From: Cetorhinus maximus
Lineage: Eukaryota
Length of the DNA: 64,000 nucleotides
Direction of reading: 5' to 3'
Assembly (NCBI RefSeq): GCF_964194155.1
Contig: NW_027596908.1
Coordinates: 62,001 to 126,000 of the forward strand
Position numbers and translations under genes: made by a program. A model generated the notes under the pieces. That model searched no databases. It saw nothing but the letters and a program-made list of their open reading frames with translations, and had not been told where the DNA came from. Within the stretch, counting starts at the first letter, position 1, and every line of letters starts with the position of its first letter. Below, piece after piece: positions 604 to 23,830 of this stretch.

Positions 604-639
604 GTGACCGGGCATCAACCCCACCCCCAACCCTCCCTA

Positions 640-1665
640 AATAATTATCCCTTAAATAATAATAATAATAAAAACAATCCCTTAAATAATAACAACCCCG
701 TAACTAATAATAATAACCCTTAAATAATAATAACCCCTTAACTAATAATAATAACCCTTAAATAATAATAACCCCTTAAATAATAATAATAACCCCTTAA
801 ATAATAATAATAATCCCTTAAATAATAATAACCCTTAAATAATAAAACCCCTTAAACAATAATAATAATCCCTTAAATAATAATAACCCCTTAACTAATA
901 ATAATAACCCTTAAATAATAATAACCCCTTAAATAATAATAATCCCTTAAATAATAATAACCCCTTAACTAATAATAATAATCCCTTAAATAATAAAACC
1001 CCTTAAATAATAAAACCCCTTAACTAATAATAATAATCCCTTAAATAATAAAACCCCTTAAATAATAATAACCCCTTAACTAATAATAATAATCCCTTAA
1101 ATAATAAAACCCCTTAAACAATAATAATAATCCCTTAAATAATAATAACCCCTTAAACAATAATAATAACCCCTTAACTAATAATAATAATCCCTTAAAT
1201 AATAATAATCCCTTAACTAATAATAATAATCCCTTAAATAATAATAACCCCTTAACTAATAATAATAATCCCTTAAATAATAAAACCCCTTAAACAATAA
1301 TAATAACCCCTTAACTAATAATAATAATCCCTTAAACAATAATAATAATCCCTTAAATAATAATAACCCCTTAAACAATAATAATAACCCCTTAACTAAT
1401 AATAATAATCCCTTAAATAATAATAATAATCCCTTAACTAATAATAATAATCCCTTAAATAATAATAACCCCTTAAACAATAATAATAACCCCTTAACTA
1501 ATAATAATCCCTTAAATAATAATAATAATCCCTTAAATAATAATAATAATCCCTTAACTAATAATAACCCCTTAAATAATAATAACCCCTTAAATAATAA
1601 TAACCCTTAAACAATAATAATAAACCTTTAACTAATAATAATAACCCCTTAAATAATAATAATAA
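640..1665. repeat. AT-rich minisatellite (AATAATAATAACCCCTTAA-like, ~19-22 bp unit)
   Basis: Direct tandem repeats; mirrored at 37722-37995. Confidence 0.95.
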
Positions 1666-1666
1666 T

Positions 1667-1735
1667 CTGAGTATCGCTGACAAAAGCGACATGTGGAAGT
1701 TTTCATCTTGCACTCATCAGGACACTTCACAAGAA
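1667..1735 (-). mobile_element. Penelope-type pLTR fragment with degenerate minimal hammerhead ribozyme
   Basis: Minus strand reads tgtc-CTGATGA-gtgcaagat-GAAA-acttc-caca (CTGATGA 1720-1714, GAAA 1704-1701); homologous to 37653-37721 and 26571-26632. Confidence 0.6.
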
Positions 1736-1968
1736 CCCCTCAAAAAGTAATTCCTTAACTCCTTCCCGAACTAACCCCTTAACAAATAATAATCCCTTAA
1801 TCCCCAAGAAACCCTTAATCCTAACAAATAACCCCCTCAAATAATAACCCCTTGACAAATAATAATCCTTTAACCCTAACAAGTGACCCCTTGAGAACTC
1901 TCCCCTTAACCCGAGCAACTAACCCAGTAGTGTAGTGCTGCCGGGGCACACCGGAGCGTCTCTCCATT

Positions 1969-2139
1969 ACCTTCTATTTAAAGGCTTTAATATTCACCGC
2001 TGGGTCCCAGTCACCAGCTCGTCGCCTTCATCTGCCCAATCGGCTCTGATATTTTTCAATGAAGCGCCACTTTTCCATTTACGCACCATCGGCCCTTCAG
2101 TCTGGAAACTGAAGCTAATGACCTAGGAGACAAGGCGGG
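1969..2139 (+). promoter_or_regulatory. TATA-like 37-bp motif followed by candidate non-coding exon
   Basis: accttcTATTTAAAggctttaatattcaccgctgggt at 1969-2005, also at 30716-30752(-) and 37384-37420(-); donor GG|GTGAGT at 2139/2140. Confidence 0.35.
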
Positions 2140-3154
2140 GTGAGTGAGAGGGGAATCAGTAAGTTAGCGGCTAGTCAGCATGTCAGCCGCTATGTTCCAC
2201 AGATTTTACCCGCGTCACCTCGCCCCACCAAAGTTAACCAGGCTCAGCACTTTAAAAGCCTTTCCAGCTGGCAGGGATTTCATTGTAAGATAACCAAGAG
2301 TTCCCAGCAGCATGGGACAACCCAAAGCAGCTTTTGTCCAGGCACATGGGCTGTGTTCTGATTGTGATGGCGGAGGGTCGTCAGATCCCGCATGAGGGTG
2401 AGTGTCATCTCCACCGTCAACCGTGTAACATTATCTCTACTTTCACAGGAAGATTCAGCCTGGTTTGGGTGGCTGGGACTAAGGGGAAGACATCGGGGCG
2501 CAATTTTCCCAGCCCGCTGGTGGCGGGCGTGACAGGTGAGCATGCGCGGAAAATATGGCGGGGCCGGCTTCACGACGGCGCCAAGGCAGCTCGCGATTGT
2601 CCGCTCAGCCCGCCAGCGGCGGGCCGCGTTCCCCGCCATCGGTCGGCGGGGAGCTCATTGTAATAGCATCTCATTTAAATGGCCACCTCGCCAGGCGCTG
2701 AACTCCCCGCCCGCCCCGCCCCGGATCGTCAGCCCACGTCGGCGGAATAGCACGTCGACGTGTTTCACAACGGGACGCAGGCAACGTGCACTTGGCGGCC
2801 TTCACTCTGGGGGAACTGAGGTGAGTGGACAGCAGTGTTCACTGCAGCTCTCCAGGGTCGCCCGCAGGCTTCAGGGGCACCGGCGGGGGGGCCTGGGTGA
2901 AGTGCTGCCCGGCCTCGGAGGTGACTGTACTCAGGGTGCGGGTATCAAGGGCAACTGCTGCCCTGGGCTGCATCCCACGCACAAGCAATCGAGGTGGATG
3001 GCAGGGTAGGCGAGGGAAGTGGCCACGCAGCAGGGACGCTCATACAAACTGACCATCCCTCTGCATCGGCCTCAGTGATACGACTGGGGTCGGGCTGCTA
3101 GCATTGCCACTACACCCCCCAGATCTTACACCCCACCGCCCCGGCACAGACTAT

Positions 3155-3840
3155 GGGTTGAAATTTCCCCCTGTCGGGGGGGATGTTGATGTGCAGGGGC
3201 ACACAGGCGTGCTTCCGATCGGCGCCCCCGATCGGAGGCACGGCGCCATTTTACGTGGGCGGGCCAATTCAGGCCCGCTCAGCGTGACGTCCACACGGAA
3301 GTGCCATACGCTCCTGTGAGGGCGGGGTGGGGGGGTTGAATCCCAAAATCAAGAGTGCGCTCTGCGCGCATGCGCGACAGAGCGCACTCATCTCCCTGAG
3401 GCTAAGTCCAGCCTCAGGCTCCAGATGTTAAAAACCTAAAATTAGAAATGTAAAATTTCCCTAAAATGTCACATGAGTTGAGAAATGTCCATAATTTTCA
3501 CAAAAAACTTTATTAAACTTTTTAAAAGTTACATGAAAACTCATCCCGCCCGTGGATGAGGTTTCATGTTTTTCTAGTTCTCGCCGGGGCTCCTGGCCTG
3601 CCCGCTGACTTTAAGGTTGGATGGGCAGGTCCTTTAATTACAGAATTGAGTCTGTCAATGGCCTCAATTGGCCGTTGGACAGGTCGGTGGGCGCACAGCT
3701 GATTTTGCTGCGCCCCCGCCTTCCTGAAAATTTAAACGGGACGCGGTGACGTCAGGAGCTACCCCCGGCGTCACCACGCATCATTTTACATGTCAGCGAG
3801 CGGGCCCCTCCTCTGCTCACCAACGTGTAAAATCCTACCC
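3155..3840. mobile_element. Harbinger-type MITE nested in the left-arm Harbinger element
   Basis: Imperfect TIRs GGGTTGAAATTT...AAAATCCTACCC; 3-bp TSD TAT at 3152-3154 and 3841-3843; empty site in right arm near 34900. Confidence 0.85.
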
Positions 3841-4335
3841 TATGAGTCCGCTCCCACGTTACTGGACCGTGGAGCAGTTGGATTGCACAGGTTGTACGGT
3901 CTCCTCGCCAACACTGGTCATGTAGCAGTCACTGCTGGAGGCACTCACAGCCCTTTGCAATCTCAGCATCCCAGTGTGGACCAGTGCCCCCCATGTCGCA
4001 GGTCAACAGGGCAGCCATGCAGCGCACTCATCTCTGGCCATCCGAGGGGTGACCAGCACTCTCCGGGAAGCATTAAGGGGCAGTCACACTGGGCCAGGAA
4101 AGGTGCTAAGTACAGCCATGATAAGCACATCCCTCTCTCTCATTCATGCTGCAGGAGGACCACGTCAGGATCACGGATCTTGGTGACCTAGCTGTGTGCC
4201 TGATGGCCGACAGAGACCATAGAAGATTGAGGAGAGAGACTGAGGCTCCTGGCTGCGCAAAGGTAGGAGCAGTGACCTCATGAAGAAGGGGCAGCAGGGG
4301 CTCCCACACACACTGCCCAGGAGTGACAGCGAGTT

Positions 4336-5172
4336 GTGGCTGCTCGGCGCCTAGTTACACCCAGGGTCTATAGATGCCGCCTGCCATTCCTGCAGATGAC
4401 TGAGAACCAGTGTCGCCGATCACTGCACATGTCTAGGGACCTGGTCGCTCACATCTGCCACTTGCTGCAGGTCTTGGCACCATCGCAAGCCTCCAGCCAC
4501 AAATGCATCCATGAGGTCACGGATGCCATCTTCTCGAGGGCACACAACTTTGTGCATTTCGCCTGGGACCGGGACAGCCAGAATGCAAGGGCCATTGGAT
4601 TCGCCCTGATCTCGGGATTCCCACAGGTTCAGGGTGTGATCGACTGCATCCATGTGGTGCTCAGGTCTCCGTCGCTACACATGTTGGACTACATCAACCG
4701 CAAGGGCTTCCATTCACTGAATGTGCAGCTGGTGTGCGAGCACCAGAAACGCATCCTACAGGTGTGCGCTCAGTTTCCAGGGAGTGTGCACGATGCCTAC
4801 ATCCTGAGTCACTCGCACATCCTTACAGTCTTCCCGGATCCACAGAGGCTACAGAGATGGCTCCTCAGGGACAAGGGCTACCCGCACGGGCGGTGGCTGA
4901 TGACACCCGTGCTGCAGCTGAAGAGGGTATCACGCATCATCATTGTCCACTACACCTTTTACAACCTGGCGCTGCAAGGGGGAGACGAGCTGGCTGAGGA
5001 GGAGCTGGAGGTCTCCTCGGATGAGGACAACGGCAGCGGGGATGGAGGTGAGGAGGTCCTCGGTGGTGATGATGACGGGGATGAGGCTCTCGCACTGGCT
5101 AGACGAGGCAGATGCTCGGGAGGTCCTCATAGCTGCCAGATTTGTAGAGGATGCAGTGAGGTGTACCCGTAG
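4336..5172 (+). pseudogene. Harbinger (HARBI1-like, DDE_Tnp_4) transposase pseudogene
   Basis: Motifs GFPQVQGVIDCIH, YINRKGFHSLNVQLVC, FPGSVHDAYIL, LRDKGYP, WLMTP; HTH segment and catalytic Glu region deleted. Confidence 0.85.
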
Positions 5173-6669
5173 ATCCTCACATCACAGTGTGAATGTTTGA
5201 CTCCGGTCTGGCTTATGGCAGCGCCAATACCCTCTGTGAGAATGCTCCTGTCATGGAGATGTAGTGGAGGCCCTAATAGTCGCTCGATCGCAGGAGGATG
5301 ATGACAACATGCAGTGAGGGCACTTCATGACTCTTCACGTAGCCTCTGTGAATGTCTGACTCCTGTCTGGCCGAGGGCAGCTCACTTGCGCTCCATGAAT
5401 CAGGCCCATCTCAAAGACGCAGCCATGAAACTTGAGACGCATTCGATGCTGTGTCTGCCTTCAGTACCTCGGCCCTTCATGAACTGGTGCACAGCATCAA
5501 TGGTCGCAGACACTGGTGCGATGGGGGCCAGCCCCTCCTTAAAGGTGCTGCGAGAACACAGAGAGAAAAGACGGAACTCTGTGGCGCCTGCCCACTGCAT
5601 TCTGGCAGCAATGACCAGCACCATTGAGGGGCAGGCATCAGTAATGTCTCCACGGAGTGTGAGGCTGGACCATCACTGTGGTCTGAAGGCTGCAGAGCAC
5701 AGGGAAGAGGCCCTGGACTGAGACACCTGCCTTTTATCTTGTGTGGAAAGGTTTCACATCCGAGTGACAAGAACACTGCTCATCAGAACAAGGAGCCTCA
5801 GGCAGGGAGACATTCTTAGGGGTTTATTGACAATATTGAACAGTATGTACAAGTGATCAACACCTGTGCCCAGGCTGTGCAACCACTTTTCCTTAACTGT
5901 CCAAACCTTGCTGCTAGGTCTTGGTCCTCCCCGGAACTCCACAGCGGAGGTGGAGGCAGCCTGCTGACTGTGACACCCTGTCTGTGATGACTTTGGCGGC
6001 CTCCCTGTGGAGAGCTGAGACTTGAAGGACCCCGGCCTGCTTTCGGGGTCCTGCTGTGTGGCAGTGGCATCCTCCTCAGCCTGTGGAGCTGGAGCTGTGG
6101 AGGTCACAGGAAGAGGGGACTCGAATGGGTTGGTCACTGAAGAGTGGTGTCCCTGGAGTGTGCACCTGCTGATCCTCCTTCCTATGGGTGCCCGAGGGCC
6201 CCTGGCTGACTCCATGAGGGGAAGGGGTAGCTGGAGTGAGATCGAGCTGCCCAGCACAGCTCTTGCGTACACGCTGTTGGAGGCCAACTATCGTGTCAGC
6301 AATAGAGTTAAGCCCGCACAGCAGTGCAGGAGCGACGTCCTGGACCAAGGTCTCCATGGCGGCCACCATCCTGCCAGTACTGACCTTGGTGCGTTGCAAT
6401 GCCGGCGCTATCACCTCAGACTGAAGACGGACGGGCTCCTCCATTGTGCCTTGCAATCTGAGGAGTGCAGCGGACATCCCTTCCTGATGTTCCCAAGTTT
6501 GTCTTTGCAGCTCCAGCAACTGTGACATGACCGAGTCCAGAGGCTCCTCATCTGACTCGGACTCAGGAATGTTCTGGCCTCCAGCACCTCCTCCGAGTGC
6601 CGGGGACCTGGTAAGTCCCTGCTTCCACCTGCTGTTGATCAGACTGTGCACTGTGCTCACCATGTGGAG

Positions 6670-7200
6670 TGTATTCACACCTGGAGCACTGTGGACAGTT
6701 CTGGTCTCCTTACTTAAGGAGGGATAGACTTGCATTGGAGACAGTTCAGAGAAGGTTCACTCGGCTGGTTCCTGGGATGAAGGGGGTTTGCCTTATGAGG
6801 TAAGGTTGAGCAGGTTGGGCCTGTGTCCATTGGAGTTTAGAAGAATGAGAGGCGATCTTATTGAAACATATCAGATTCTGAGGGGGCTGGACAGGGTGGG
6901 TGCGGAGAGGACGTTTCCCCTCATGGGGGAATCTAGAACGAGGGAGCACAGTTTCAGAATAAGGTGTCCCCCATTTCAGACTGAGACGAGTAGGAATTTC
7001 TACTCTCAGAGGGCCCTTACACTGTGGAATCCGCTACCCCAGGGAGCAGTGGATGCTGCGTTAGTCAGATATTTGATCTACAAGGGAGTCCAGGGTTATG
7101 GGGCCAGGCAGAAAAGTGGAGTTAAGGCCACAATCAGATCAGCCATGATCTTATTAAATGGGGGAGCAGGCACGAGGGGCTGAATGACTTCACGCTTCTC
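6670..7200 (+). mobile_element. CR1-type LINE 3' fragment
   Basis: YEVRLSRLGL-PLEFRRMRGDLIETYQILRGLDRV...ESRTR-H...LWNPLPQ, typical CR1 ORF2 C-terminus. Confidence 0.85.
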
Positions 7201-7369
7201 CTATTTCTTCTAATGTACTTGTATGTGGACTGTAGCTGGAAGTTTAAGGCTCTAGATTTAGGGTAAACAATCTAAAGGCTCATGGGTCCAAACCTCACGA
7301 CTGCTAGTATTTGTGGTGCTGTGATCTCCTTTTGGGTATGGACTCAATGGGCTGTTGGAAGGTATATGC

Positions 7370-8900
7370 TGAGGAAGCGCCGCACTGTCGGAGGGTCAGT
7401 GCTGAGGGAGCGCTGCACTGTCGGAGGGTCAGTACTGAGGGAGCGCTGCACTGTCGGAGGGTCAGTGCTAAGGGAGTGCCGCACTGTCGGAGGGTCAGTA
7501 CTGAGGGAGCGCCGCACTGTCGGAGGGTCAGTGTTGATGGAGCGCCGCACTGTCGGAGGGTCAGTGTTGATGGAGCGCCGCACTGTCGGAGGATCAGTAC
7601 TGAGGGAGCGCCGCACTGTCGGAGGGTCAGTGCTGAGGGAATACTGCACTGTTGGAGGGTCAGTGTTGAGGGAGTGCTGCACTGTCGGAGGGTCACTGTT
7701 GAGGGAGTGCTGTAGTGTCGGAGGGTCAGTGCTGAGGGAGCGCCGCACTGTCGGAGGGTCAGTGTTGAGGGAGTGCCGCACTGTTGGAGGGTCACTGTTG
7801 AGGGAGCACCGCACTGTCAGAGGGTCAGTGTTGAGGGAGCTCCGCATATCGGATGGTCTGTGCTGCGGTACCACCGCCCTGTTGGAAGGTCAGTACTGAG
7901 GGAGTGCTGCACTGTCGAAGGGTCAATGTTGAGAGAGTGCAGCACTGTCGGAGGGTCAGTGTTGAGGGAGTGCCGCACTGTCGGAGGGTCAGTGCTGAGG
8001 GAGCGCCGCACTGTCGGAGGGTCAGTGCTGAGGGAATACTGCACTGTTGGAGGGTCAGTGCTGAGGGAGTGCTGCACTGTCGGAGGGTCACTGTTGAGGG
8101 AGTGCTGTAGTGTCGGAGGGTCAGTGCTGAGGGAGCACCGCACTGTCGGAGGGTCAGTGTTGAGGGAGTGCCGCACTGTTGGAGGGTCACTGTTGAGGGA
8201 GCACCGCACTGTTGGAGGGTCACTGTTGAGGGAGCACCGCACTGTCAGAGGGTCAGTGTTGAGGGAGCTCCGCATATCGGATGGTCTGTGCTGCGGTACC
8301 ACCGCCCTGTTGGAGGGTCAGTACTGAGGGAGTGCTGCACTGTCGAAGGGTCAATGTTGAGAGAGTGCAGCACTGTCGGAGGGTCAGTGTTGAGGGAGTG
8401 CCGCACTGTCGGAGGGTCAGTGCAGAAGCAGTGCCGCACTGTCGGAGGGTCAGTGCTGAGGCAGTGCCGCACTGTCGGAGGGTCAGTGCTGAGGCAGTGC
8501 CGCACTGTCGGAGGGTCAGTGCTGAGGCAGTGCCGCACTGTCGGAGGGTCAGTGCTGAGGCAGTGCCGCACTGTCGGAGGGTCAGTGCTGAGGCAGTGCC
8601 GCACTGTCGGAGGGTCAGTGCTGAGGCAGTGCCGCACTGTCGGAGGGTCAGTGTTGAGGGAGTGCTGCACTGTCAGAGGGTCAGTACTGAGGGAGCGCTG
8701 CACTGTCGGAGGGTCAGTGTTGAGGGAGTGCCGCACTGTCAGTGGGTCAGTACTGAGGGAGTGCTGCACTGTCAGAGGGTCAGCACTGAGGGAGCGCTGC
8801 ACTGTCGGAGGGTCAGTGTTGAGGGAGTGCTGCACTGTCGGAGGGTCAGTGTTGAGGGAGTGCCGCACTGTCGGAGGTTCAGTGTTGAGGGAGTGCCGCA
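7370..8900. repeat. 33-bp minisatellite (gcactgtcggagggtcagtgctgagggagtgcc)
   Basis: 33-bp period; translates to [11 protein letters not shown] repeats; internal 428-bp block duplication (7853 vs 8281). Confidence 0.95.
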
Positions 8901-8949
8901 CTGAGAAAGAAATGCCTCCTTCCATCGATGCACCTCCTTCACACTCAAT

Positions 8950-9094
8950 ATGAGGAACATTGAAAACTGGCTTTTCGAATTGTTTCAGATAACCTTTAAG
9001 GATATAAAAGACGCAACTGATAAAATCAAAGAGATTGATGCCCTGACCAAGAGGATCATTGCTTTGGAAGAACAGGTGGCTAGTCTAAAGAAAT
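8950..9094 (+). CDS. Left-arm C1q-domain gene, coiled-coil exon (acceptor at 8989; in-frame ATG at 8950)
   Basis: TTTCAG|ATAACC acceptor; ITFKDIKDATDKIKEIDALTKRIIALEEQVASLKK; donor T|GTAAGT at 9094, phase 1 matches exon 12351. Use of ATG 8950 (MRNIENWLFELFQ) is inference. Confidence 0.7.
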
Positions 9095-9139
9095 GTAAGT
9101 GAGAACATACTCGATCTGGGCTTTATAATCTTTTTCTCC

Positions 9140-9760
9140 TTCTTAGTCACTTCCTCAGGATCAAGGAATGAATTGCTTTCACTTGAGTTTGGTTGGTTTT
9201 GAGCTGGTGATCTGCAGATTCTGCCCCGTGTGGGGTGGGTGGAGCTTCAAGGGTTGGGTAGATAGGTTGTTTGAGGGTTTGTGCACTCCCTCAGAGGCCT
9301 CGACTTTCGCTCTGCACGTTCCCAATGAAGCTTCTGTGATTGGTGCCTTCCCGAATGAGCTTTCTCCATTTTGGTCAGTCACAAGACAGGGACTCCCATG
9401 AGTCAGCAGGGATGTTTGACCTCTTCAGGGATGCTCTGAGGATAGCCCTCAAAGGTTTCTACTGTGCTCTTGGGAGCCTCCTGTCATGACTGAATTCTGA
9501 GTAAAGCAGTAGAGCTTTGATAGTCTGGTGTCAAGCATACGAACAACACAACCCTTCCAGCGGAGCTGGTCTGAGTGCTTTATCTCAATGGCTTGGGACA
9601 CGATGCTGCTGTTTGACCAGCTTTCTTGTCACCAGATTTGTAGGATCTTACGAAGAAGCAGCTGGTGGTATTTCTCCGCTGCTTTGAGTTGCCTGCTGTA
9701 GATCACCCAAACCTTTGAAGCCTATATGGGGGTCACTGCTGCCCAGTAAAGCACGAACAT
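9140..9760 (-). mobile_element. RTE-clade LINE 3' fragment, decayed
   Basis: Minus strand resembles the RTE C-terminal segment seen more clearly at 28231-28620 (YQAAVIPAL-Y-SEAW--YSRHLK); mirrored at 23215-23830. Confidence 0.6.
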
Positions 9761-9799
9761 AGTTGTCATAACCAATTAACACACGAGCCACAAAGTATC

Positions 9800-10430
9800 A
9801 AACAATGAGCGTCTCCAACAACAGACAATCTAACCATCACCCCTTGACATTCAATGGCATTACCATCACTGAATCCCCCACTATCAACATCCTGGGGGTT
9901 ACCCTTAACCAGAAACTGAACTGGACTAGCCATAGAAATACTGTGGCTACAAGAGCAGGTCAGAGGCTGGGAATCCTGCAATGAATAACTCACCCCCTAA
10001 CTCCCCAAAGCCTGTCCACAATCCACAAGACACAAGTCAGGAGTGCGAAGGAATACTCCCCACTTCCTAGATGAGTGCGGCTCCCACTCAAGAACAACAC
10101 AAGAAGGTCGACACCATCCAGAACAAAGCAGCCTGATTGGCACCACATCCGCAAACATTCACTCCCTCCACCACCGACGCACAGTAGCAGCAGTGTGTGT
10201 ACCATCTACAAGATGCGCTGCAGGAATTCACCAAGGCTGCTTCGACAGCACCTTCCAAACCCATGACCACTACCATCTAAAAGGACAAGGGCAGCACACA
10301 AATGGGAACACCACCACCTGAAAGTTCCCCTCCAAGTCACTCACCATCCTGACTTGGAAATATATCGGCTGTTCCTTCACTGTCGCTGGGCCTGAGGCAA
10401 TTCGAGGTAGATTATAAATGCTGACATTGC
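9800..10430 (+). mobile_element. CR1/L2-superfamily LINE 3' fragment
   Basis: Same family as 61660-62290 ([20 protein letters not shown]; [12 protein letters not shown]). Confidence 0.75.
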
Positions 10431-10594
10431 CAGATAAAGGGCGTCAATCATCATGTAATTTTAGAAGGGAAATGGAAAAACACAAGACACATTAGATTGA
10501 ACATGAGAAATGTGATATATTGTGGGAGGAAGAATGAGGAGAGGTAACTTCAGCTGAATAATGTAATTTTAAACCAAGTGCAAGAACAGCAATC

Positions 10595-12290
10595 TTAACA
10601 TTTTCACCCTAATTTTCAAACATATCCATGGCCTCCTTCCCCTCCCTATCTCTATAACCTCCCCCCAGCCCCAACAACCCTCCCTATCTCGGTTACCTCC
10701 TCCAGCCCCAACGACCCTCCCTATCTCGGTTACCTCCTCCAGCCCCAACAACCCTCCCTCCCTAACTTGGTTACCTCCTCCAGCCCCAACAACCCTCCCT
10801 ATCTCTGTAACCTCCTCCAGCCCCTACAACTTCCTAATATCTGTAACCTCTTCCCACTCCTAGAAACCTCCCTACCTCTGTAGACTCCTCCAGCTCCTAC
10901 AACCCTCCCTATCTCTGTAGCCTCCTCCAGCTCCTACACCCTCTCTATCTCTGTAACCTCCTCCAGCCCCTAAACCCTCCCTATCTCTGAAACCTCCTCC
11001 ATCCCCTATAACCCTCCCTATCTCTGTAAGCTCCGCCAGCCACCACAACTCTCCCTATCTCTGAAACCTCCTCCAGCCCCTACAACCCTCCCTATCTCTG
11101 TAACCTCCTCCAGTCCCTACAACCCACCCTATCTCTGAAACCTCCTCCAGCCCCCACAACCCTCCCTATCTCTGTAACCTCCTCCAGCCCCAACAACCCA
11201 CCCTATCTCTGAAACCTCCTCCAGCCCCCACAACCCTCCCTATCTCTGAAACCTCCTCCAGCCCCCACAACCCTCCCTATCTCTGTAACCTCCTCCAGCC
11301 CCCACAGCCCTCCCTATCTCTGTAACCTCCTCCAGCCCCCACAACCCTCCCTATCTCTGTAACCTCCTCCAGCCCCCACAACCCTCCCTATCTCTGTAAC
11401 CTCCTCCAGCCCCCACAACCCTCCCTATCTCTGTAACCTCCTCCAGCCCCCACAACCCTCCCTATCTCTGTAACCTCCTCCAGCCCCCACAACTCTCCCT
11501 ATTTCTGTAACCTCCTCCAGCCCCGACAACCCTCCCTATCTCTGTAACCTCCTCCAGCCCCGACAACCCTCCCTATCTCTGTAACCTCCTCCAGCCCCTA
11601 CAACCCTCCCTATCTCTGAAACCTCCTCCAGCCCCGACAACCCTCCCTATCTCTGTAACCTCCTCCAGCACCTACAACCCTCCCTATCTCTGAAACCTCC
11701 TCCAGCCCCTACAACCCACCCTATCTCTGAAACCTCCTCCAGCCCCCACAACCCTCCCTATCTCTGTAACCTCCTCCAGCCCCTACAACCCTCCCTATCT
11801 CTGAAACCTCCTCCAGCCCCGACAACCCTCCCTATCTCTGTAACCTCCTCCAGCCCCTACAACCCTCCCTATCTCTGAAACCTCCTCCAGCCCCCACAAC
11901 CCTCCCTATCTCTGTAAGTTCCACCAGCCCCCACAGCCCACACTATTTCCATAACCTCCTCAGCCCCTACATCCCTCCGAGATCTCTGCGCTCCTCCCAA
12001 TTCCGGCCTCTTGACCATCCCCCGATTCCCCATCGCTCCACCGTTGGCGGCCGTGCCTTCAGGTGCCTGGGGCCCTGAGCTGTGGAATTCCCTCCCTAAA
12101 CCTCTCCGCCTCTCTGTCTCTTCACGCCTTTAAGACACTTCTCAAATCAGACCTCTTTGACCAAGCTTTTGGTCACTTGTCCTGACATCTCCTTATCTGC
12201 TTTAGGGCCACGTTTTGTGTTAGAACACTCCTGTGAAGCCCCTCTGGATATTTTGTCATTCTGAAGGTGCTATATAAATGGCAATTCTTG
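10595..12290 (+). mobile_element. L2-type LINE 3' end containing expanded 37-bp minisatellite (~10640-11970)
   Basis: Flanks read as HGL-PPYL-NLLQP...PPRSLRSS and [16 protein letters not shown]; unit ccctatctctgtaacctcctccagcccctacaaccct, 37-bp period. Confidence 0.8.
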
Positions 12291-12350
12291 TTGTTCTTAT
12301 TGGCTCCTGCCTGTTTGCTCCTCACTCACCACCGTAACCTTCATTTCTAG

Positions 12351-12754
12351 ATGTGCCGAGTGTCATTTTCCACGCTAAAGTGTCCGACGGCAAGAACCCA
12401 GGGGCAAAGCAACGTCTCATTTACGACTCAATTATTGTCAACAAAGGATCAGCTTACAACCCCTTGACTGGGGTTTTCACTGCCCCAGTGGCCGGCACCT
12501 ATCACTTCACTTACTCACTGCTCGGGGGAACGCACGCAGAAAATACTGTGGTGCACCTGATGAGGAATGAGGAAACACAGAGTTACTTACACAGCAAACT
12601 GAAAAGTGAACAAGCCCAGACAGCGTCCATGCCCGCAATACTGTCCCTCAACAAAGGTGATCAAGTCTGGGTCCGGCTGGTCAGCGGAAACATATGGAGT
12701 GGACTGGGAGCCATGAACTTTCAGGGAGTCCTTCTGGAGGCTGATGAGGCGTGA
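12351..12754 (+). CDS. Left-arm C1q-domain gene, terminal exon encoding globular C1q domain (cerebellin/C1q-like)
   Basis: TTCTAG|AT acceptor; VIFHA, [50 protein letters not shown]; TGA at 12752-12754. Confidence 0.92.
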
Positions 12755-13019
12755 GCTGGCAGGGCCTCTGGCCTTGACAGACTGAGCTGGACTCCCGTGA
12801 GGAACGGTCCACTCTGTCCAATCAACACCTGCCGCTTGACAAATCCATGGAACATTTTCATCCTTTCTTTGCAACCTTTCAATATTTGTACTCTTATTTT
12901 TTTGCAAAGTGAGGAGATGATCCAGAGAACTCACCAGAAACCCGATACTCCCATACCCCCATCTACTGTCAGAAAAACTCCCTACAACATCCCAGCTCCC
13001 CAACTGGAACATCTTCCTC

Positions 13020-14830
13020 CATAACCCAGCTCCCACATCGGGACCCCTCCCTCCAAAACCCGAGCTCCCCCATCAGGACCCCTCCCTCCAATATCCCTAC
13101 TCCCCATCGGGACAATACCCTCCAAAACCCGAGCTCCTCCATCAGGAACCCTCCCTCCAATACCTCTATTCCCCCATCGGGACCCCTCCCTCCAATAACC
13201 CTACTCCCCCATCAGGACCCCTCCCTCCAATACCCCAACTACCCCATCGGGACCCCTCCCTCCAATATCCCAACTACCCCATTAGGACCCCTCCCTCCAA
13301 TACCCCAACTCCCCCATCGGGACCTGCCCCTCCAATACCTCTACTCCCCAATCGGGACCCCTCCCTCCAATACCCCTACTCCCCCATCGGGACCTGCCCC
13401 TCCAATACCCCTACTTCCCCATCGGGACCCGTCCCTCCAATACCCCAACCCCCCCATTGGGACCCCTCCCTCCAATATCCCAACTCCCTCATTGGGACCC
13501 CTCCCTCCAATATCCCTACTCCCCCATCGGGGCCCGTCCCTCCAATATCCCAACTCCCCCATCGAGACCCCTCCCTCCAATATCTCAACTCCCCCATCAG
13601 GACCCCTCCCTCCAATATCCCAACTCCCCCATCGAGACCCCTCCCTCCAATATCCCAGTTCCACCATCGAGACCCCTCCCTCCAATACCCAAGTCTCCTA
13701 TCGGGTCCCCTTCCTCCAAAACCCCCATCGGAAGCCCTCCCTCCAATTCCACAACTCCTCCATCGGGACCCCTCCCTCCAATAACCCTATTCTCAAATTG
13801 GGCTCCCTCTCTCCAATACCCCCTTTCCCCCATCGGAAGCCCTCCTTCCAATACCCCAGTTCCCCCATCAGGACTCCTCCCTCCAATACCCCAATTCACC
13901 ATGAGAAGTCCTCCCTCCAGTACCCCTACTCCCCCCAAAGGAAGCCTTCCTTCCAATACCCCAATTCCCACATCAGGAGTCCTCCCTCCAATACCACTAT
14001 TCCCACTTTGTGACTCCCCACTCCAATTTCACATCTTCCCCCATCAGAAGCCCTCCCCCCAACCCCCCAAATCTCCCATTGGGACCCCTCTCTCCAACAC
14101 CCCAAATCTCCCATTGGGACCCCTCCCCCCAACCCCCCAAATCTCCCACTGGGACCCCTCTCTCCAACACCCCAAATCTCCCAATTGAACCCCTCCCTCC
14201 AACACCCCAAATCTCCCATTGTGACCTCTCCCCCCACCCCCCAAATCTCCCATTGGGACCCCTCTCTCCAACACCCCAAATCTCCCATTGGGACCCCTCC
14301 CCTCAAACCCCCAAATCTCCCACTGGGACCCCTCTCTCCAACACCCCAAATCTCCCATTTGGACCTCTCCCTCCAACACCCCAATCTCCCATTGTGACCC
14401 CTCCCTCCAACACCCCAATCTCCCATTGTGACCCCTCCCTCCAACACCCCAATCTTCCATGGGGATCCCTCCCTCCAACACTCCAAATTTCCCATCAGGA
14501 CCCCTCCATCCAATATCCCAAATCTCCCATCGTGACCGCTCCATCCAATATCCCAAATCTCCCATCGGGACCTCTCTTTCCAACACCCCAAATCTCCCAT
14601 TGTGACCCCTCCATCCAATATCCCAAATCTCCCATTGTGACTCCTCCCCCAAACCCCCCATCAGGACCCCTCTTTCCAACACCCCAAATCTCCCATCGGG
14701 ACCCCTCCATCCAATATCCCAAATCTCCCATCGTGACCCCTCTCTCCAATACCCAAACTCCTCCAAATCTCCTCCATCCAATATCTCAACTTCCTCCGTT
14801 AGACCGCTTCCTCCAATACCCCCCAATCCA
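13020..14830. repeat. C-rich ~35-36-bp minisatellite (ccccatcgggacccctccctccaatatcccaactc)
   Basis: Tandem degenerate units; mirrored at 18700-21060. Confidence 0.9.
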
Positions 14831-14879
14831 TCGAGACCCCTTTCTCTATTGCCCCAAAATTTTCACCACCACATGGGAA

Positions 14880-15180
14880 CATAAAACTTAGGAGCAGGAG
14901 TAGGCTATTCAGTCCTTTGAGCCTACTCCACTATTCGATAGGATCATGGCTGACCTGACTGAAGTCCCAACTCCACTTTCCCCCATATCCCTTGACTCCC
15001 CCTGTCTATCAGAAATATGTCTAACTCAGTCTTGAATAAATTCAATGACCCAGCATCCACTGCTCTCTGTGGAAGAGAATTCCGCAGACTAACAAACCTC
15101 TGAGTACATTAACGATCCTCCTTATCTCCATCTTAAAATAACTGTGTCCCCTTGTCCTCATTTTCTCCACAAGAAGAAAT
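14880..15180 (-). mobile_element. CR1-type 3' tail fragment
   Basis: ttaggagcaggagtaggctattcag...gatcatggctga matches the CR1 tail at 44240-44310; mirrored at ~18365-18655. Confidence 0.7.
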
Positions 15181-15296
15181 ATCCAGCACCACTACCTAAC
15201 CCTAAATTCACCACACCCACTCCCTTAAATTTTCCAATGAGGTTTATCTCACTCTCTCCCCAGTACCCCCTGCCCCTCGATCCCGACTCCCAGTGT

Positions 15297-16336
15297 GTAG
15301 GCCAGGGTGATTAGATTTTGGTTTATCTCGACCACTTTTAGACCATTTTTATATTATATTCACTGTAATAGCTAACAAGGTCAAGGAAGCCATTTTGATA
15401 CTAACACATGGCTAAACAAGCTATTTTGTATTTTGCGTTAACTGCATGTATTAACGAAATCATTATATTAAGATAGTAACCAGTCACAAAACTGATGATT
15501 GTACAAGCCGTGAGCCTTAAATGAGTTACAATTAATGAATCAGCAATCATATTAATGAGACAGGATTGATTGAATTAAAGGCAACTGCTCTGAAGGCTTT
15601 GATGTATCAGAAGATAAGCAAGGTTTGAAATGTTAAGTAGGTAAACAGGTTAAAGGCAAAAGTTGCATTTTTAAATAAATCAGACTAGATTGATTTCAAA
15701 GGAGGGATGAAATATTTTGCCTGGCCAGGAGAAGTTAAGAAAAAGTGTGTTTATTTTTCCAAAAGATTACTGGTAAAATTTTTACTATGAGAGATTTTTA
15801 GTATTAGAGATGTGAAGTCCAAAGCCATAATGAAACAATGGGAATTTGCATTCAAAGGGGAAAATATGTCTCAAGGAAAGAAGACTGTGTGTAAGGACAG
15901 GCATTCTAAGACCTAACAAGTGTGAAAAACCTTCAGCATCTAAGCCTCAAGCTGATGTCTACAAAGAACTGAAGTTAAGAAAACTCACTTTGAATTGGAT
16001 TGTTCAGGGTCATGTGTTTCTTTGCCTGGGTCTTTTAACATTTATGTGTCTAACTGTTGCCTTAATGAAAGTGTAAGTGGTAGATTAGCTAGTGGATTTA
16101 GAAGTTATGATAGTAATAATTTGTAGATCTATGTATATACTTAAAATGATTTCTTCTATTAATAAAGGTTTAATTTAGTTTTGTAAGAAACCTATAAGAT
16201 TCGGTGGTCTTACTACGACTGAATTCAAGCCACACAACTTGAAATTTATACAAATTGCAAACAGTTGTGGCAGGTATTTCAAGTTTCCCTTTGGGATTTG
16301 AGCAGCTCAGCATTTACCATTGGCTGTGCCATAACA
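15297..16336 (+). mobile_element. LTR-like AT-rich sequence A (possible solo LTR)
   Basis: TGT...ATAACA ends, AATAAA at 16161; no TSD found. Confidence 0.35.
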
Positions 16337-17277: not shown

Positions 17278-18243
17278 TGTTATCCATAATTTAATTGATT
17301 TCAGGCATCCCAATTTGCCAGCAATTTCTAAGTGACTCAATAAATTTACTTTTGTTTGTACAGGATTTAACCCATTAAGGCAAGACAGGACGCTTTGGAA
17401 AGTAACTTTAAGAAATTTATTAAAAGAGCAAGGTATGCTTAGCAACTCAAGTCTGTGACTTTTAACAACTTCCCCTGGGCGATCAGTCTGTCGATATGTA
17501 ACCCTCTCAAGACTCTGTATGGGACACAAGGAGTCTTCACTTCTTATTTAGTCATCACCTTATGTCAGAGTCAGGCTTTTTCCAATTTAACAATTAATTG
17601 GTTAATTAATTGGTTCTTGACCATAGTAGCCACCTGGCCTCAGTATTTTCGACAAGAATACAATTGAACTGTTTCACCGTGTCTCTCCATCTAATCACTA
17701 TTCACAAAGGCAAGCTCTTTGAGGTCAGACTGATGAAGAGTCATACGGACTTGAAATGTTAACTCTGTCTTTCTCCCCACAGATGCTGTTAGACCTGTTG
17801 AGTTTTTCCAGCATTTTCTGATTTTGCCTCTTTGTGGTCATGGTGTACACTCTCTCAGGAACTTATCAGAGTTCCAAGCATTACACTGATGGAATAACTT
17901 TTCAGAAACTGCTCTTTCTCACACCAACATAGAAATTTATTGTAATTAACAATTAACAAGCTTTAAATGAAAATCCTGTCTCATTAATATGATTGTTGAT
18001 TCTTTAATTGTAGCTCATTTAAGGCTCACTGCTTGTACAATCATCAGATTTGTGACTGGTTACTATCTTAATATAATGATTTCATTAATACATGCAGTTA
18101 ACGCAAAATACAAAATAGCTTGTTTAGCCATGTGTTAGTATCAAAATGGCTTCCTTGACCTTGTTAGCTATTACAGTGAATATAATATAAAAATGGTCTA
18201 AAAGTGGTCGAGATAAACCAAAATCTAATCACCCTGGCCTACA
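17278..18243 (-). mobile_element. LTR-like AT-rich sequence B (possible solo LTR)
   Basis: Minus strand TGT...GGATAACA, AATAAA at 17421-17416; shares only its first ~280 bp with sequence A. Confidence 0.35.
17728..17827 (+). ncRNA. 100-bp insertion carrying a minimal hammerhead ribozyme motif (Penelope-type)
   Basis: CTGATGA 17730-17736, stem II gagtc/atacg/gactt, GAAA 17753-17756, tgtTA; flanked by 13-bp near-perfect TSD ctctttgaggtca (17715-17727) / ctctttgtggtca (17828-17840). Confidence 0.75.
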
Positions 18244-18699
18244 CACTGGGAGCTGGGGTCGGGGGGCAGGGGGTACTGGGGAGAGAGTGAGATAAATCTC
18301 ATTGGAAAATTTAGGGGAGTGGGTGTGGTGAATTTTGGTTTAGGTAGTGGTGCTGGATATTTGTGGAGAAAATGAGGACAAGGGGACACAGTTATTTTAA
18401 GACGGAGATAAGGAGGATCGTTAATGTACTCAGAGGTTTGTTAGTCTGCGGAATTCTCTTCCACAGAGAGCAGTGGATGCTGGGTCATTGAATTTATTCA
18501 AGACTGAGTTAGACATATTTCTGATAGACGGGGGGAGTCAAGGGATATGGAGGAAAGTGGAGTTGGGACTTCAGTCAGGTCAGCCATGATCCTATCGAAT
18601 AGCGGAGTAGGCTCAAAGGACTGAATAGCCTACTCCTGCTCCTAAGTTTTATGTTCCCATGTGGTGGTGAAAATTTTGGGGTAATAGAGAAAGGGGTCT

Positions 18700-21060
18700 C
18701 GATGGATTGGGGGTCTTGGAGGAAGCGGTCTAACGGAGGCAGTTGAGATATTGGATGGAGGAGACTTGGAGCAGTTTGGGTATTGGAGGGGTCACGATGG
18801 GAGATTTGGGATATTGGATGGAGGGGTCCCGATGGGAGACTTGGGGTATTGGAGGGAGGGGTCCTGATGGGAGATTTGGGGTGTTGGAGAGAGGGGTCAC
18901 GATGGGAGATTTCAGATATTGGATGGAGGGGTCCTGATGGGAAATTTGGGATATTGAATGGAGGGGTCCTGATGGGAAATTTGGGATATTGGATGGAGGG
19001 GTCTCCATGGAAGATTGGGGTGTTCAAGGGAGGGGTCCCAATGGGAGATTTGGGGGTTGTGGGGAAGGGCTTCTGATGGGGGAAGATGTGATATTGCAGG
19101 GGGGTGTCACAAAGTGGGAATAGCAGTATTGGAGGGAAGACTTCTGATGCGGGAATTGGGGTATTGGAAAGAAGGCTTCCTTTGGGGGGAATAGGGGTAC
19201 TGGAAGGAGGGCTTCTGATGGGGGAAAGGGGGTATTGGAGAGAGGGAACCCAATTGGAGAATAGGGTTATTGGAGGGAGGGGTCCCGATGGAGGAGTTGT
19301 GGAATTAGAGGGAGGGCTTCCGATGGGGGTTTTGGAGGGAGGGGTCCCGATAGGAGACTTGGGTATTGGAGGGAGGAGTCCCGATGGGGGAGCTGAGATA
19401 TTGGAGGGAGGGGTCCCGATGGGGGTTTTGGAGGGAGGGTTCCCAATTGGAGACTTGGGTCTTGGAGGGAGGGGTCCCGATGGGGGAGCTCGGGTTTTGG
19501 AGGGAGGGGTCTCGATGGGGGAGTTGGGATATTGGAGGGAGGGGTCCCAATGGGGGAGCTTGGATATTGGATGGAGGGGTCTCAAAGGGGGAGTTGGGGT
19601 ATTGGAGGGAGGGGTCCTGGTGGGGGAGCTGGGATAATGGAGGGAGGGGTCCCGATGGGGGAGTTGGGATATTGGAGGGAGGGTTCCCGATGTTGGAGTT
19701 GGGGTATTGGAGGGAGGGGTCTCATTGGGGGAGTTGGGATATTGGCGGGAGGGGTCTCACTGGATGAGTTGGGGTATTGGAGGGAGGGGTCCCGATGGGG
19801 GAGTTGGGATATTGGAGGGAGGGGTCTCGATGGGGGAGCTGGGGTATTGGAGGGAGGGGTCCCGATGGGGGAGTTGGGATATTGGAGGGAGGGGTCCCGA
19901 TAGGGGAGTTGGGATATTAGGGGGAGGGGTCTCATTGGGGGAGTTGGGATATTGGCGGGAGGGGTCTCACTGGGGGAGTTGGGATATTGGAGGGAGGGGT
20001 CCCGATGGGGGAGTTGGGATATTGGAGGGAGGGGTCCCGATGGGGGAGTTGGGATATTGGAGGGAGGGGTCCCGTTGGGGGAGTTTGGGTATTGGAGGGA
20101 GGGGTCTCAATGGGGGAGCTGGGTAATTGGAGGGAGGGGTCTCGATGGGGGAGTTGGGATATTGGAGGGAGGGGTCCCGATGGGGGAGCTGGGATATTGG
20201 AGGGAGGGGTCTCGATGGGAGAGTTGGGATATTGGACAGAGCGGTCCCGATGAGGGAGTTGGGGTATTGGAGGGAGGGGTTCCGATGGGGGAGTAGGGGT
20301 ATTGGAGGGAGGGGTCGCGATGGGGGAGTTGGGATATTGGAGGCAGGGGTCCCGATGAGGGTCGGGGTATTGGAGAGAGAAGTCCCGATGAGGGAGTTGG
20401 GGTATTGGTGAGAGGGGTCCCGATGGGGGAGTTGGGATATTGGAGGGAGGGGTCTCGATGGGGGAGCTGGGATATTGGAGGGAGGGGTCTCGATGGGAGA
20501 GTTGGGATATTGGACAGAGGGGTCTCGATGGGGGAGTTGGAGTATTGGAGGGAGGGGTCCCGATGGGGGAGTAGGGATATTGGAGGGACGGGTCCCGATG
20601 GGGGAGTTGGGATATTGGAGGGAGGGGTCCCAATGGGGGAGCTCGGGTTTTGGAGGGAGGGGTCCCGATGTGGGAGTTGGGTTATTGGAGGGAGAGGTCC
20701 CCATGGGGGAAGTTGGGTTATTGGAGGGACGGGTCCTGATGGGGAGCTCGGGTTTTGGTGGGAGGGGTCCTGATGGGGAGTAGGGATATTGGAGGGAGGG
20801 GTCCTGATGGGGAGCTCGGGTTTTGGAGGGAGGGGTCCTGATGGGGAGTAGGGATATTGGAGGGAGGGGTCCTGATGGGGGAGCTTGGGTTTTGGAGGGA
20901 AGGGTCCCGATGGGGGAGTTTGGGTATTGGAGGGACGGGTCCCGATGGGGGAGTAGGGGTTTTGGAGGGATGGGTCCCAATGGGGGAGTAGAGGTATTGG
21001 AGGGAGGGGTCCTGATGGGGGAGCTCGGGTTTTGGAGGGAGGGGTCCCGATGTGGGAGCT
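18700..21060. repeat. G-rich ~35-36-bp minisatellite (mirror of 13020-14830)
   Basis: gagttgggatattggagggaggggtcccgatgggg tandem units. Confidence 0.9.
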
Positions 21061-21333
21061 GGGTTATGGAGGAAGATGTTCCAGTTGGGGAGCTGGGATG
21101 TTGTAGGGAGTTTTTCTGACAGTAGATGGGGGTATGGGAGTATCGGGTTTCTGGTGAGTTCTCTGAATCATCTCCTCATTTTGCAAAAAAATAAAAGTAC
21201 AAATATTGAAAGGTTGCAAAGAAAGGATGAAAATGTTCCATGGATTTGTCAAGCGGCAGGTGTTGATTGGACAGAGTGGACCGTTCCTCACGGGAGTCCA
21301 GCTCAGTCTGTCAAGGCCAGAGGCCCTGCCAGC

Positions 21334-21737
21334 TCACGCCTCATCAGCCTCCAGAAGGACTCCCTGAAAGTTCATGGCTCCCAGTCCACTCCATGTGATT
21401 CCGCTGTCTAGCCGGACCCAGACTTGATCACCTTTGTTGAGGGACAGTATTGCGGGCATGGACGCTGTCTGGGCTTGTTCACTTTTCAGTTTGCTGTGTA
21501 AGTAACTCTGTGTTTCCTCATTCCTCATCAGGTGCACCACAGTATTTTCTGCGTGCGTTCCCCCGAGCAGTGAGTAAGTGAAGTGATAGGTGCCGGCCAC
21601 TGGGGCAGTGAAAACCCCAGTCAAGGGGTTGTAAGCTGATCCTTTGTTGACAATAATTGAGTCGTAAATGAGACGTTGCTTTGCCCCTGGGTTCTTGCCG
21701 TCGGACACTTTAGCGTGGAAAATGACACTCGGCACAT
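21334..21737 (-). CDS. Right-arm C1q-domain gene, terminal gC1q exon
   Basis: Same motifs as 12351-12754; reads VRLDSGITW instead of VRLVSGNIW; acceptor TAG at 21740-21738. Confidence 0.92.
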
Positions 21738-21794
21738 CTAGAAATGAAGGTTACGGTGGTGAGTGAGGAGCAAACAGGCAGGAGCCAATAAGAA

Positions 21795-22700
21795 CAACAA
21801 GAATTGCCATTTATATAGCACCTTCAGAATGACAAAATATCCAGAGGGGCTTCACAGGAGTGTTCTAACACAAAACGTGGCCCTAAAGCAGATAAGGAGA
21901 TGTCAGGACAAGTGACCAAAAGCTTGGTCAAAGAGGTCTGATTTGAGAAGTGTCTTAAAGGCGTGAAGAGACAGAGAGGCGGAGAGGTTTAGGGAGGGAA
22001 TTCCACAGCTCAGGGCCCCCAGGCAGCTGAAGGCACGGCCGCCAATGGGGAATCGGGAGATGGTCAAGAGGCCGGAATTGGGAGGAGCGCAGAGATCTCG
22101 GAGGGATGTAGGGGCTGAGGAGGTTATGGAGTTAGTGTGGGCTGTGGGGGCTGATGGAGTTTACAGAGATAGGGAGGGTTGTGGGGGCTGGAGGAGGTTT
22201 CAGAGATAGGGTGGGTTGTAGGGGCTGGAGGAGGTTACAGAGATAGGGAGGGTTGTGGGGGCTGGCGGAGCTTACAGAGATAGGGAGTGTTATAGGGGCT
22301 GGAGGAGGTTACAGGGATAGGGAGTGTTGTGGGGGTTGGAGGAGGTTTCAGAGATAAGGAGGGTTGTAGGGGCTGGAGGAGGTTACAGAGATAGGGAGGG
22401 TTTAGGGGCTGGAGGAGGTTACAGAGATAGGGAGGGTTGTAGGAGCTGGAGGAGGCTACAGAGATAGGGAGGTTTCTAGGAGTGGGAAGAGGTTACAGAT
22501 ATTAGGAAGTTGTAGGGGCTGGAGGAGGTTACAGAGATAGGGAGGGTTGTTGGGGCTGGAGGAGGTAACCGAGATAGGGAGGGTCGTTGGGGCTGGAGGA
22601 GGTAACCGAGATAGGGAGGGTTGTTGGGGCTGGGGGAGGTTATAGAGATAGGGAGGGGAAGGAGGCCATGGATATGTTTGAAAATTAGGGTGAAAATGTT
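21795..22700 (-). mobile_element. L2-type LINE 3' end with shorter 37-bp minisatellite
   Basis: Mirror of 10595-12290. Confidence 0.8.
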
Positions 22701-22869
22701 AAGATTGCTGTTCTTGCACTTGGTTTAAAATTACATTATTCAGCTGAAGTTACCTCTCCTCATTCTTCCTCCCACAATATATCACATTTCTCATGTTCAA
22801 TTGAATGTGTCGTGTGTTTTTCCATTTCCCTTCTAAAATTACATGATGATTGACGCCCTTTATCCGGCA

Positions 22870-23830
22870 ATGTCAGCATTTATAATCTACCTCGAATTGC
22901 CTCAGGCCCAGTGACAGTGAAGGAACGGCCGATATATTTCCAAGTCAGGATGGTGAGTGACTTGGAGGGGAACTTCCAGGTGGTGGTGTTCCCATGTGTC
23001 TGTTGCCTTTGTCCTTTTAGATGGTAGAGGTCGTGGGTTTGGAAGGTGCTGTCGAAGGAGCCTTGGTGAGTTGCTGCAGTGCATCTTGTAGATGGTACAC
23101 ACACTGCTGCTACTATGCGTCGGTGACAGAGAGAGCGCATGTTTGTGCATGTGGTGCCAATCAGGCTGCTTTGTTCTGGATGGTGTCAAGGTGTTAATTG
23201 GTTATGACAACTAAGGTCATGCTTTACTGGGCAGCAGTGACCCCCATATAGGCTTCAAAGGTTTGGGTGATCTACAGCAGGCAACTCAAAGCAGCAGAGA
23301 AATACCACCAGCTGCTTCTTCGTAAGATCCTACAAATCTGGTGACAAGAAAGCTGGTCAAACAGCAGCATCGTGTCCCAGGCCATTGAGATAAAGCACTC
23401 AGACCAGCTCCGCTGGAAAGGTTGTGTTGTCCGTATGCTTGACACCAGACTATCAAAGCTCTACTGCTTTACTCAGAATTCAGTCATGACAGGAGGCTCC
23501 CAAGAGCACAGTAGAAATCTTTGAGGGCTATCCTCAGAGCATCCCTGAAGAGGTCAAACATCCCTGCTGACTCATGGGAGTCCCTGTCTTGTGACTGACC
23601 AAAATGGAGAAAGCTCATTCGGGAAGGCACCAATCACAGAAGCTTCATTGGGAACGTGCAGAACAAAAGTCGAGGCCTCTGAGGGAGTGCACAAACCCTC
23701 AAACAACCTATCTACCCAACCCTTGAAGCTCCACCCACCCCACACGGGGCAGAATCTGCAGATCACCAGCTCAAAACCAACCAAACTCAAGTGAAAGCAA
23801 TTCATTCCTTGATCCTGAGGAAGTGACTAA
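22870..23830. mobile_element. CR1/L2-superfamily fragment (22870-23190, -) and RTE fragment (23215-23830, +)
   Basis: Mirror of 9140-10430 with ~330 bp missing. Confidence 0.7.

Follow-up and report, generated by a model that had tools for sequence, protein, structure and literature searches.

Gene conversion between duplicated genes can leave a peak of divergence between the copies, a pattern set out in the model of Teshima and Innan and reported in two papers for exon 5 of the red and green opsins and for the Drosophila pair CG18281/CG17637 (PMC3924837, PMC2588116). The test for such a peak requires that orthologous divergence be flat across it (PMC2588116). Pseudogenes are described as conversion donors in the MHC, in plant R genes and in somatic immunoglobulin conversion (PMC3924837). 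Among proteins with a C1q head, secreted C1q-like type II proteins, which combine a signal peptide with a coiled coil and a gC1q domain, form a class defined for bivalves, in which episodic positive selection affects 4-11 residues per cluster (PMC6835236). For sharks, the main text of a nurse-shark plasma proteome paper deals with C1q itself only (PMC9207270), and open-access searches returned no literature on the C1q subfamily or locus described here, which does not imply absence elsewhere.

We analyzed a 64-kb window of the basking shark (Cetorhinus maximus) genome, meaning the whole stretch of 64,000 nucleotides, which carries two inverted gC1q exons that differ at four sites in one loop. 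The pair resembles the divergence-peak systems in its local excess of mostly replacement differences inside long homogenized flanks. It is unlike them in having only four sites, a 200-bp window test that fell short, raised orthologous divergence and a left copy without 5' exons, and in being known here from one species. Since three defining tests (the window test, flat orthologous divergence and function of both copies) went against it, we do not class the pair as a selected peak. Judged from its sequence, the right copy appears to share the architecture of the secreted C1q-like type II class, and like its members it has a tandem duplicate and a few hypervariable sites; in contrast to the published bivalve class, the shark subfamily has two or three members per species rather than hundreds, and the likeness does not imply orthology. 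The left copy recalls the published pseudogene donors in being 5'-truncated with its frame intact, in lying beside a working gene and in differing at a likely binding surface, whereas it is a single donor, with a putative transfer only and no known targeting machinery. The predicted shark gC1q fold is similar to those of C1QL1-3 (TM-score 0.86-0.92) and Caprin-2 (0.88-0.89), yet identity to C1QL1-3, Caprin-2 and cerebellin is only 27-35% and the collagen tail is absent; the database names 'C1q-like 4' and 'CTRP3-like' are loose labels for the shark proteins.

A complete gene and its headless inverted copy

Self-comparison of the window reveals an inverted duplication whose arms are separated by a 2,380-bp spacer:

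~633..15580, plus strand: left arm of the inverted duplication
~17961..38004, minus strand: right arm of the inverted duplication

Across ten unique arm segments, with tandem repeats excluded and four segment edges trimmed (7,963 of 8,036 columns retained), the arms differ by 165 substitutions and 22 indels in 7,963 columns, a divergence of 2.1%; the substitutions agree with the initial annotation, which had described other arm regions as frequently substituted. Because this divergence is about eight times the heterozygosity of 0.27% given for Cetorhinus maximus in a published study (PMC13044535), the arms are unlikely to be alleles. The right arm alone contains a 500-bp direct duplication at 97% identity (35867-36368 and 36643-37144). 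Both arms carry a DDE_Tnp_4 transposase remnant (4327-5172 on the plus strand, with a mirror near 33450-34450), which we take to be of PIF/Harbinger type; the right-arm remnant lacks about 160 bp, and an identical run of 462 bp lies just downstream of the remnant. The assembly is weak at 46184-48200, distant from the C1q loops, where three 130-base N gaps fall inside a tandem repeat and a 244-bp exact duplicate lies between two of the gaps.

Both copies encode a gC1q domain (PF00386) that scores 86-87 bits against a cut-off of 23.7, and theirs are the only two gC1q exons in the window. The coding exons are as follows:

12351..12754, plus strand: last coding exon of the left copy, encoding gC1q (PF00386), with an open frame and an intact AG acceptor
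8989..9094, plus strand: left copy, exon 3, coiled-coil-like as judged from sequence; differs from the right copy at 9004, 9017 and 9059
21334..21737, minus strand: right copy, exon 4, gC1q
23879..23984, minus strand: right copy, exon 3
25994..26068, minus strand: right copy, exon 2, with a hydrophobic signal-peptide-like segment and two Cys; single copy in the window
27083..27100, minus strand: right copy, first coding exon, which carries the start codon; no second copy in the window

Exons 1-4 of the right copy splice at GT-AG junctions into 603 nt encoding 200 amino acids and a stop, and sequence comparison finds the hydrophobic segment at the N-terminus homologous to that of full-length shark relatives. 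Exon 3 encodes a hydrophobic repeat in which, judged by eye, Gly-X-Y is absent. All three exon-3 differences between the copies are replacements; with the white-shark protein as reference, two are left-derived and one is right-derived.

The best two of 22 protein matches are adjacent basking-shark models, XP_078392306.1 with the left loop and XP_078392307.1 with the right loop. Their relatives are shark proteins of about 200 amino acids with 59-92% identity, two or three per species. A profile search of 1.84 billion representatives returned 18 proteins at E up to 1e-30, none closer than the shark set; in a further profile search, two of 17 hits are basking-shark proteins. In a tree of 20 proteins, which took in 3 of those 18, both copies pair with support of 99/93 and are sister to white-shark P0023. 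Given this grouping, which excludes the white-shark protein, and the single contig that covers the exon in sequencing run X14, the duplication looks lineage-specific. Two Hemiscyllium members of the subfamily, P0007 and P0178, are given with one and the same length of longest contig (251,587), a hint of repeated local duplication in sharks.

When full-length relatives were searched against the window, exons 1-2 turned up on the minus strand only, and no second copy of either exon exists within the 64 kb. The left arm switches at 6661/6662 from the match of position 32128 to the match of about 25350, so that about 6.8 kb, and with it exons 1-2 (start codon and signal-peptide-like segment), is missing from the left copy. 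Two features mark this truncated copy:

6659..6662, plus strand: left-arm junction with ~6.8 kb missing (right arm ~25350-32127 absent) and 3-bp microhomology ACC; assembly-based
8950..8952, plus strand: left-only in-frame ATG, 39 nt before the exon-3 acceptor, where the right arm has ACG; start of the leaderless 182-aa NCBI model P0001 (XP_078392306.1)

Only the right copy is therefore a complete gene. Without exons 1-2, the left copy falls outside the signal-peptide definition of the secreted C1q-like type II proteins. Its promoter was presumably lost with the 6.8 kb, and a new one may lie outside the window. Exons 3-4 of the left copy retain intact frames and splice sites, and an in-frame stop lies 16 codons upstream of the ATG at 8950. 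The NCBI model XP_078392307.1 lacks both true 5' coding exons (27100-25994, minus strand) and starts with four other residues. Two gene models are corrected by these findings: two 5' exons of the right copy had gone unannotated, and the left copy has none.

Four loop differences inside homogenized flanks

When 11979-13015 was aligned globally to 21073-22099 in reverse complement, the arms differed at exactly four places in the 404 bp that the gC1q exon contributes to the coding sequence (12351-12754 / 21737-21334), the same four positions that the initial annotation named: left to right, G to A at 12679/21409, T to A at 12681/21407, A to T at 12690/21398 and T to C at 12693/21395. The difference at 12679 is synonymous (CTG/CTA), and the other three are replacements at second codon positions, so that the left and right copies respectively have V and D at residue 110, N and I at residue 113, and I and T at residue 114 in a segment of 133 residues. 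Translation bears out the annotated change from L-V-S-G-N-I-W on the left to L-D-S-G-I-T-W on the right. The loops, which lie 8.7 kb apart, and the identical runs between the arms are these:

12679..12693, plus strand: L-V-S-G-N-I at codons 109-114 of the gC1q exon, the left version of the loop; derived letters T at 12681 and T at 12693, ancestral letters G at 12679 and A at 12690
21395..21409, minus strand: right loop variant, L-D-S-G-I-T; 21409 and 21398 derived, 21407 and 21395 ancestral
12069..12678, plus strand: identical run of 610 bp, putative conversion tract (282 bp of intron end and the first 328 bp of the exon; from alignment and permutation)
12694..12892, plus strand: identical run of 199 bp, exon end and 3' UTR
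5567..6028, no strand assigned: second identical run, 462 bp, outside the gene; homogenization is not confined to the exon

In place of GENECONV, we permuted identity runs 20,000 times, both globally and per segment. A run of at least 610 bp arose in 0 of 20,000 global permutations and in 0.2% of per-segment permutations, and a cluster with 199 clean bases on each side arose 0 (global) and 4 (per-segment) times in 20,000. The 824 bp around the loop hold 4 differences where 19.4 are expected (P=3e-5), and the probability that all four exon differences fall inside 15 bp, computed after the fact, is 1.3e-4. The 610-bp run is beyond chance; the exon count alone is not significantly low (4 vs 8.35 expected, P=0.08). 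Clusters of at least four substitutions in 15 bp occur four times in the arms, three of them in non-coding DNA, and at least one is expected with P=0.32. Apart from the loop cluster, which is the only one of the four in complex unique sequence, two fall within a repeat that has further copies in the window and one in a C-rich stretch, so they are imperfect controls for it. As an origin for the four-change cluster, slippage or a hairpin was tried and rejected: a gapped alignment is no better than four substitutions, and folding energies are weak (-4.3 and -7.1 kcal/mol).

Compared with organism B (run X14), this species differs at 21 of 404 exon positions and 11 of 181 3' UTR positions among the listed differences. 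Since exon and 3' UTR differ about equally between species, purifying selection does not explain the identity of the arms, and with a 610-bp run beyond chance, conversion is its likely cause. Homogenization of the loop flanks by arm-to-arm gene conversion, which the initial annotation had proposed for the scaffold, is well supported.

An AlphaFold model of the domain (pLDDT 91; TM-score 0.92 to C1QL1) predicts a jelly-roll fold with strands at residues 104-111 and 122-130, which we take to be strands G and H. Residue 110 ends the penultimate long strand of the model, and residues 113-114 form a short bridge in the loop before the last strand, a placement that fits the annotated position between strands G and H. 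Residues 110-111 align with a Lys-Lys pair of the C1qA G-H loop, presumably Lys200-Lys201. In C1qA, Lys200-Lys201 are described as exposed on the side of the head, with a modest or partial effect on IgM and PTX3 binding (PMC6426777).

Polarity and pace of change at the loop

Four of 24 listed sequencing runs (X1, X14, X18 and X21) were compared over 12215-12940; the list names no RNA set from organism A, the source of X1. Run X21 had no reads at the loop. In X1 (organism A), one contig spans 12215-12922. Between 12352 and 12678 it shows no listed difference; its letters are those of the right arm at each of the four loop sites and that of the left arm at 12893, and its depth is 146 against 62-114 for the seven other listed contigs. 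This depth is consistent with two collapsed copies and gives no copy number; with about 62% of the run read, one contig covers the exon at a likeness of at least 80%. The X1 alignment ends at 12922 despite a longer contig and a stretch that continues to 12940, a possible sign of a further haplotype. In X14 (organism B), one contig covers the exon, with 39 differences in about 720 positions; it misses one base at 12694, right at the loop, either as a frameshift allele or as a contig error. The X18 contig (organism C) joins exon 3 to exon 4 and is therefore spliced.

X14 and X18 agree at all four sites, with G at 12679, A at both 12681 and 12690, and C at 12693. The derived changes thus lie in the right copy at 12679 and 12690 and in the left copy at 12681 and 12693. 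The outgroups behind this polarity are few and related, and organism B is perhaps the same species as white-shark P0023. X14 and X18 show one loop sequence apiece, though contigs collapse variants. None of the three runs with coverage of the loop shows the left-derived T at 12681 or T at 12693. Since variants are lost in contigs, the result speaks neither for nor against the existence of these letters.

The annotated view of the loop as a variable surface site is supported: in 17 sequences, the fourth and fifth most variable of 133 positions are residues 110 and 113. Residue 113 has seven states in the 17, and residue 114 is Thr or Ala in all of them. With island changes excluded, codons 106-114 hold 5 of 15 listed interspecies replacement changes against 6.6% of replacement sites (P=0.002), and local dN/dS there is about 3 vs 0.43 elsewhere (P=0.025); for the enrichment, P rises to 0.11 with scan correction, and it is 0.16 when the strict 15 bp alone are taken. 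Interspecies differences here are counts among those listed, beside 30 further table rows. A second interspecies patch at exon 4 codons 60-66 (12530-12550) has four replacements in seven codons, and the two copies are identical there.

Between the copies, exons 3-4 differ by six replacements and one silent change, as neutrality predicts (370:116 sites, P=0.47). A Fisher test over a 200-bp window, modeled on that of PMC2588116 and with paralogue differences in place of type-N sites, gave P=0.23, or 0.012 with clean flanks, and does not reach the published cut-off of P<0.0001. Orthologous divergence is raised at the peak, where 7 of 21 listed differences between the right copy and organism B fall within 35 bp (12669-12703), and constraint at the loop may be relaxed. 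The case for selection at the loop is suggestive and no more, and selection, if acting, most likely acted in the past.

Competing histories of the loop

It is highly probable that the differences are real, that the flanks were converted, that both lineages changed and that the left copy is headless, and these points are common to the two leading explanations. We tentatively favor, at less than even probability, the view that the loop is a relic divergence island whose two forms diverged while both copies worked and were then left behind. An inverted duplication of about 20 kb would have copied a four-exon gene for a secreted coiled-coil and gC1q protein. Each copy would then have changed in a patch at the end of strand G and the opening of the G-H loop (D110V and T114I on the left; N113I and one silent change on the right), probably under selection on the ligand of the head while both copies were complete. 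Later arm-to-arm conversion would have erased the flanking differences over 610 and 199 bp and spared the patch, and the left arm would have lost 6.8 kb with exons 1-2, so that the right copy alone is now able to make the secreted protein, with the left loop most likely silent. What favors this history is that both copies changed, in interleaved fashion, on a patch that evolves fast in related sharks; that chance does not account for the identity run and that permutation yields the island shape in 0 and 4 of 20,000 trials; and that three of four changes are replacements, at highly variable residues (110 and 113) and at a position (110-111) aligned with the Lys-Lys pair of C1qA. The neutral 6:1 ratio, the scan-corrected P=0.11 and the failed window test weaken it. 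If it holds, the locus is a small, clean example of how conversion between inverted arms leaves a divergent patch, and codons 106-114 are a candidate binding surface of an uncharacterized shark C1q subfamily. The initial annotation had gone further, proposing that the loop is kept different to diversify ligand recognition. That proposal needs two working genes, and it is weakened by a left copy that is headless in the window, lacking exons 1-2, and by the neutral-looking ratio of replacement to silent changes.

A neutral remnant comes close behind in our ranking: the left copy would have been a pseudogene for most or all of its existence, four ordinary mutations would have clustered by chance, and conversion from the working copy would have overwritten the flanks and stopped at or skipped the dense mismatches, which would shield the cluster without selection. 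Mismatches halt conversion tracts, the left copy lacks exons 1-2 and the replacement:silent ratio is neutral; had those exons been missing from the start, selection on the left copy would have been impossible. Equally dense clusters, four in all, and a 462-bp identical run outside the gene occur in the arms, and two left-derived states look unusual, Thr in exon 3 for a hydrophobic residue (Ile or Leu in most relatives) and Ile114, found in 0 of 17 other sequences. This account gives no reason why both left exon-4 changes, both replacements, fall within 15 bp of the right copy's two on a fast-evolving patch; the island shape arises at best 4 times in 20,000, the comparison clusters lie in repeat or low-complexity DNA, and Ile occupies the position of residue 114 in Caprin-2 and C1qA and so is not plainly damaging. 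Patchy heteroduplex repair is documented in Drosophila mismatch-repair mutants, whereas wild-type Drosophila tracts, according to the same paper, are never discontinuous (PMC4154643). Because the deletion is undated, these data do not separate a neutral remnant from the relic that we favor.

We consider it improbable that the loops are older than the arms suggest, either as two old alleles captured by the duplication or through a duplication that preceded the split from relatives, with conversion leveling the rest. The left copy agrees with organisms B and C at the informative sites 12679 and 12690, residue 113 of more distant sharks is Ile or Phe and so resembles the right copy, and four differences in 15 bp far exceed the 2.1% background; against this, only two sites are informative, parallel change is common at a residue with seven states in 17 sequences, and, as a weak point, X14 yields one contig at a depth like that of other contigs of the run. 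Lower again in our estimation is a silent cassette, in which the headless left copy would store an alternative loop that is swapped behind the only promoter by inversion or short conversion. The mechanism proposed for it, which we rate equally low, is that a crossover in the 610-bp run inverts the inner segment while diversifying selection keeps the pseudogene open and the loop different. The geometry suits such a switch (a single promoter, arms in inverted orientation, a long perfectly identical stretch immediately upstream of the loop and 8.7 kb between the two loops), as do the intact left frames and splice sites and the X1 contig, which links the right loop to the left letter at 12893, and theory permits pseudogene donors under diversifying selection (PMC3924837). 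The same geometry, though, would arise whenever an inverted duplicate loses its 5' part, a mosaic like that of X1 is expected from an assembly that collapses two copies, one donor and three residues make a very small repertoire, and no switching was observed. If true, a secreted shark protein of the C1q type would have two binding variants, with individuals or cells able to switch from one to the other; this would be a cassette-type diversifier in an innate recognition gene of a jawed vertebrate and a simple, directly testable switch.

The remaining explanations are less probable still. It is very unlikely that the left copy still yields a protein, leaderless and probably cytosolic, from the ATG at 8950 and that selection now keeps its loop different: the left-only in-frame ATG, the XP_078392306.1 model that starts there and the intact frames fit, but the stop 16 codons upstream and the lack of a known promoter do not, ACG to ATG is the commonest kind of vertebrate mutation, and annotated starts are unreliable here, since the real exons 1-2 of the right copy were also missed. 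Import of a short tract from a third paralogue, an alternative raised in the initial annotation, is harder again to credit. Other sharks have two or three subfamily members; the derived changes, however, alternate right, left, right, left between the copies, which disfavors a single imported tract, and no donor was found in the window, in the part of X1 that was read or among the proteins compared. The window holds two gC1q exons and no match to either loop 21-mer with up to three mismatches, the profile hits include two basking-shark proteins among 17, and none of the other 15 aligned sequences matches either loop exactly; four three-mismatch matches of the left 15-mer in the window lie out of context and were treated as chance. 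Least probable of all is an assembly artefact, whether consensus errors or two haplotypes joined as arms. The left-derived letters are seen in 0 of 3 runs covering the loop, and four runs of sample S1 contain 73-92% of the words of the left stretch. Contigs, however, drop one path of a bubble, the arm divergence far exceeds the published heterozygosity (PMC13044535), at 12893 the X1 contig has a left-derived letter, and the left copy shares the outgroup state at two of the four sites, which errors would not be expected to produce, so consensus error is unlikely at 12679 and 12690.

As neighbors of the C1q pair, repeated VWD, C8, TIL and TILa exons occupy 48336-61412 on the minus strand, an array that we take to have the architecture of an FCGBP-like or mucin-type gene.
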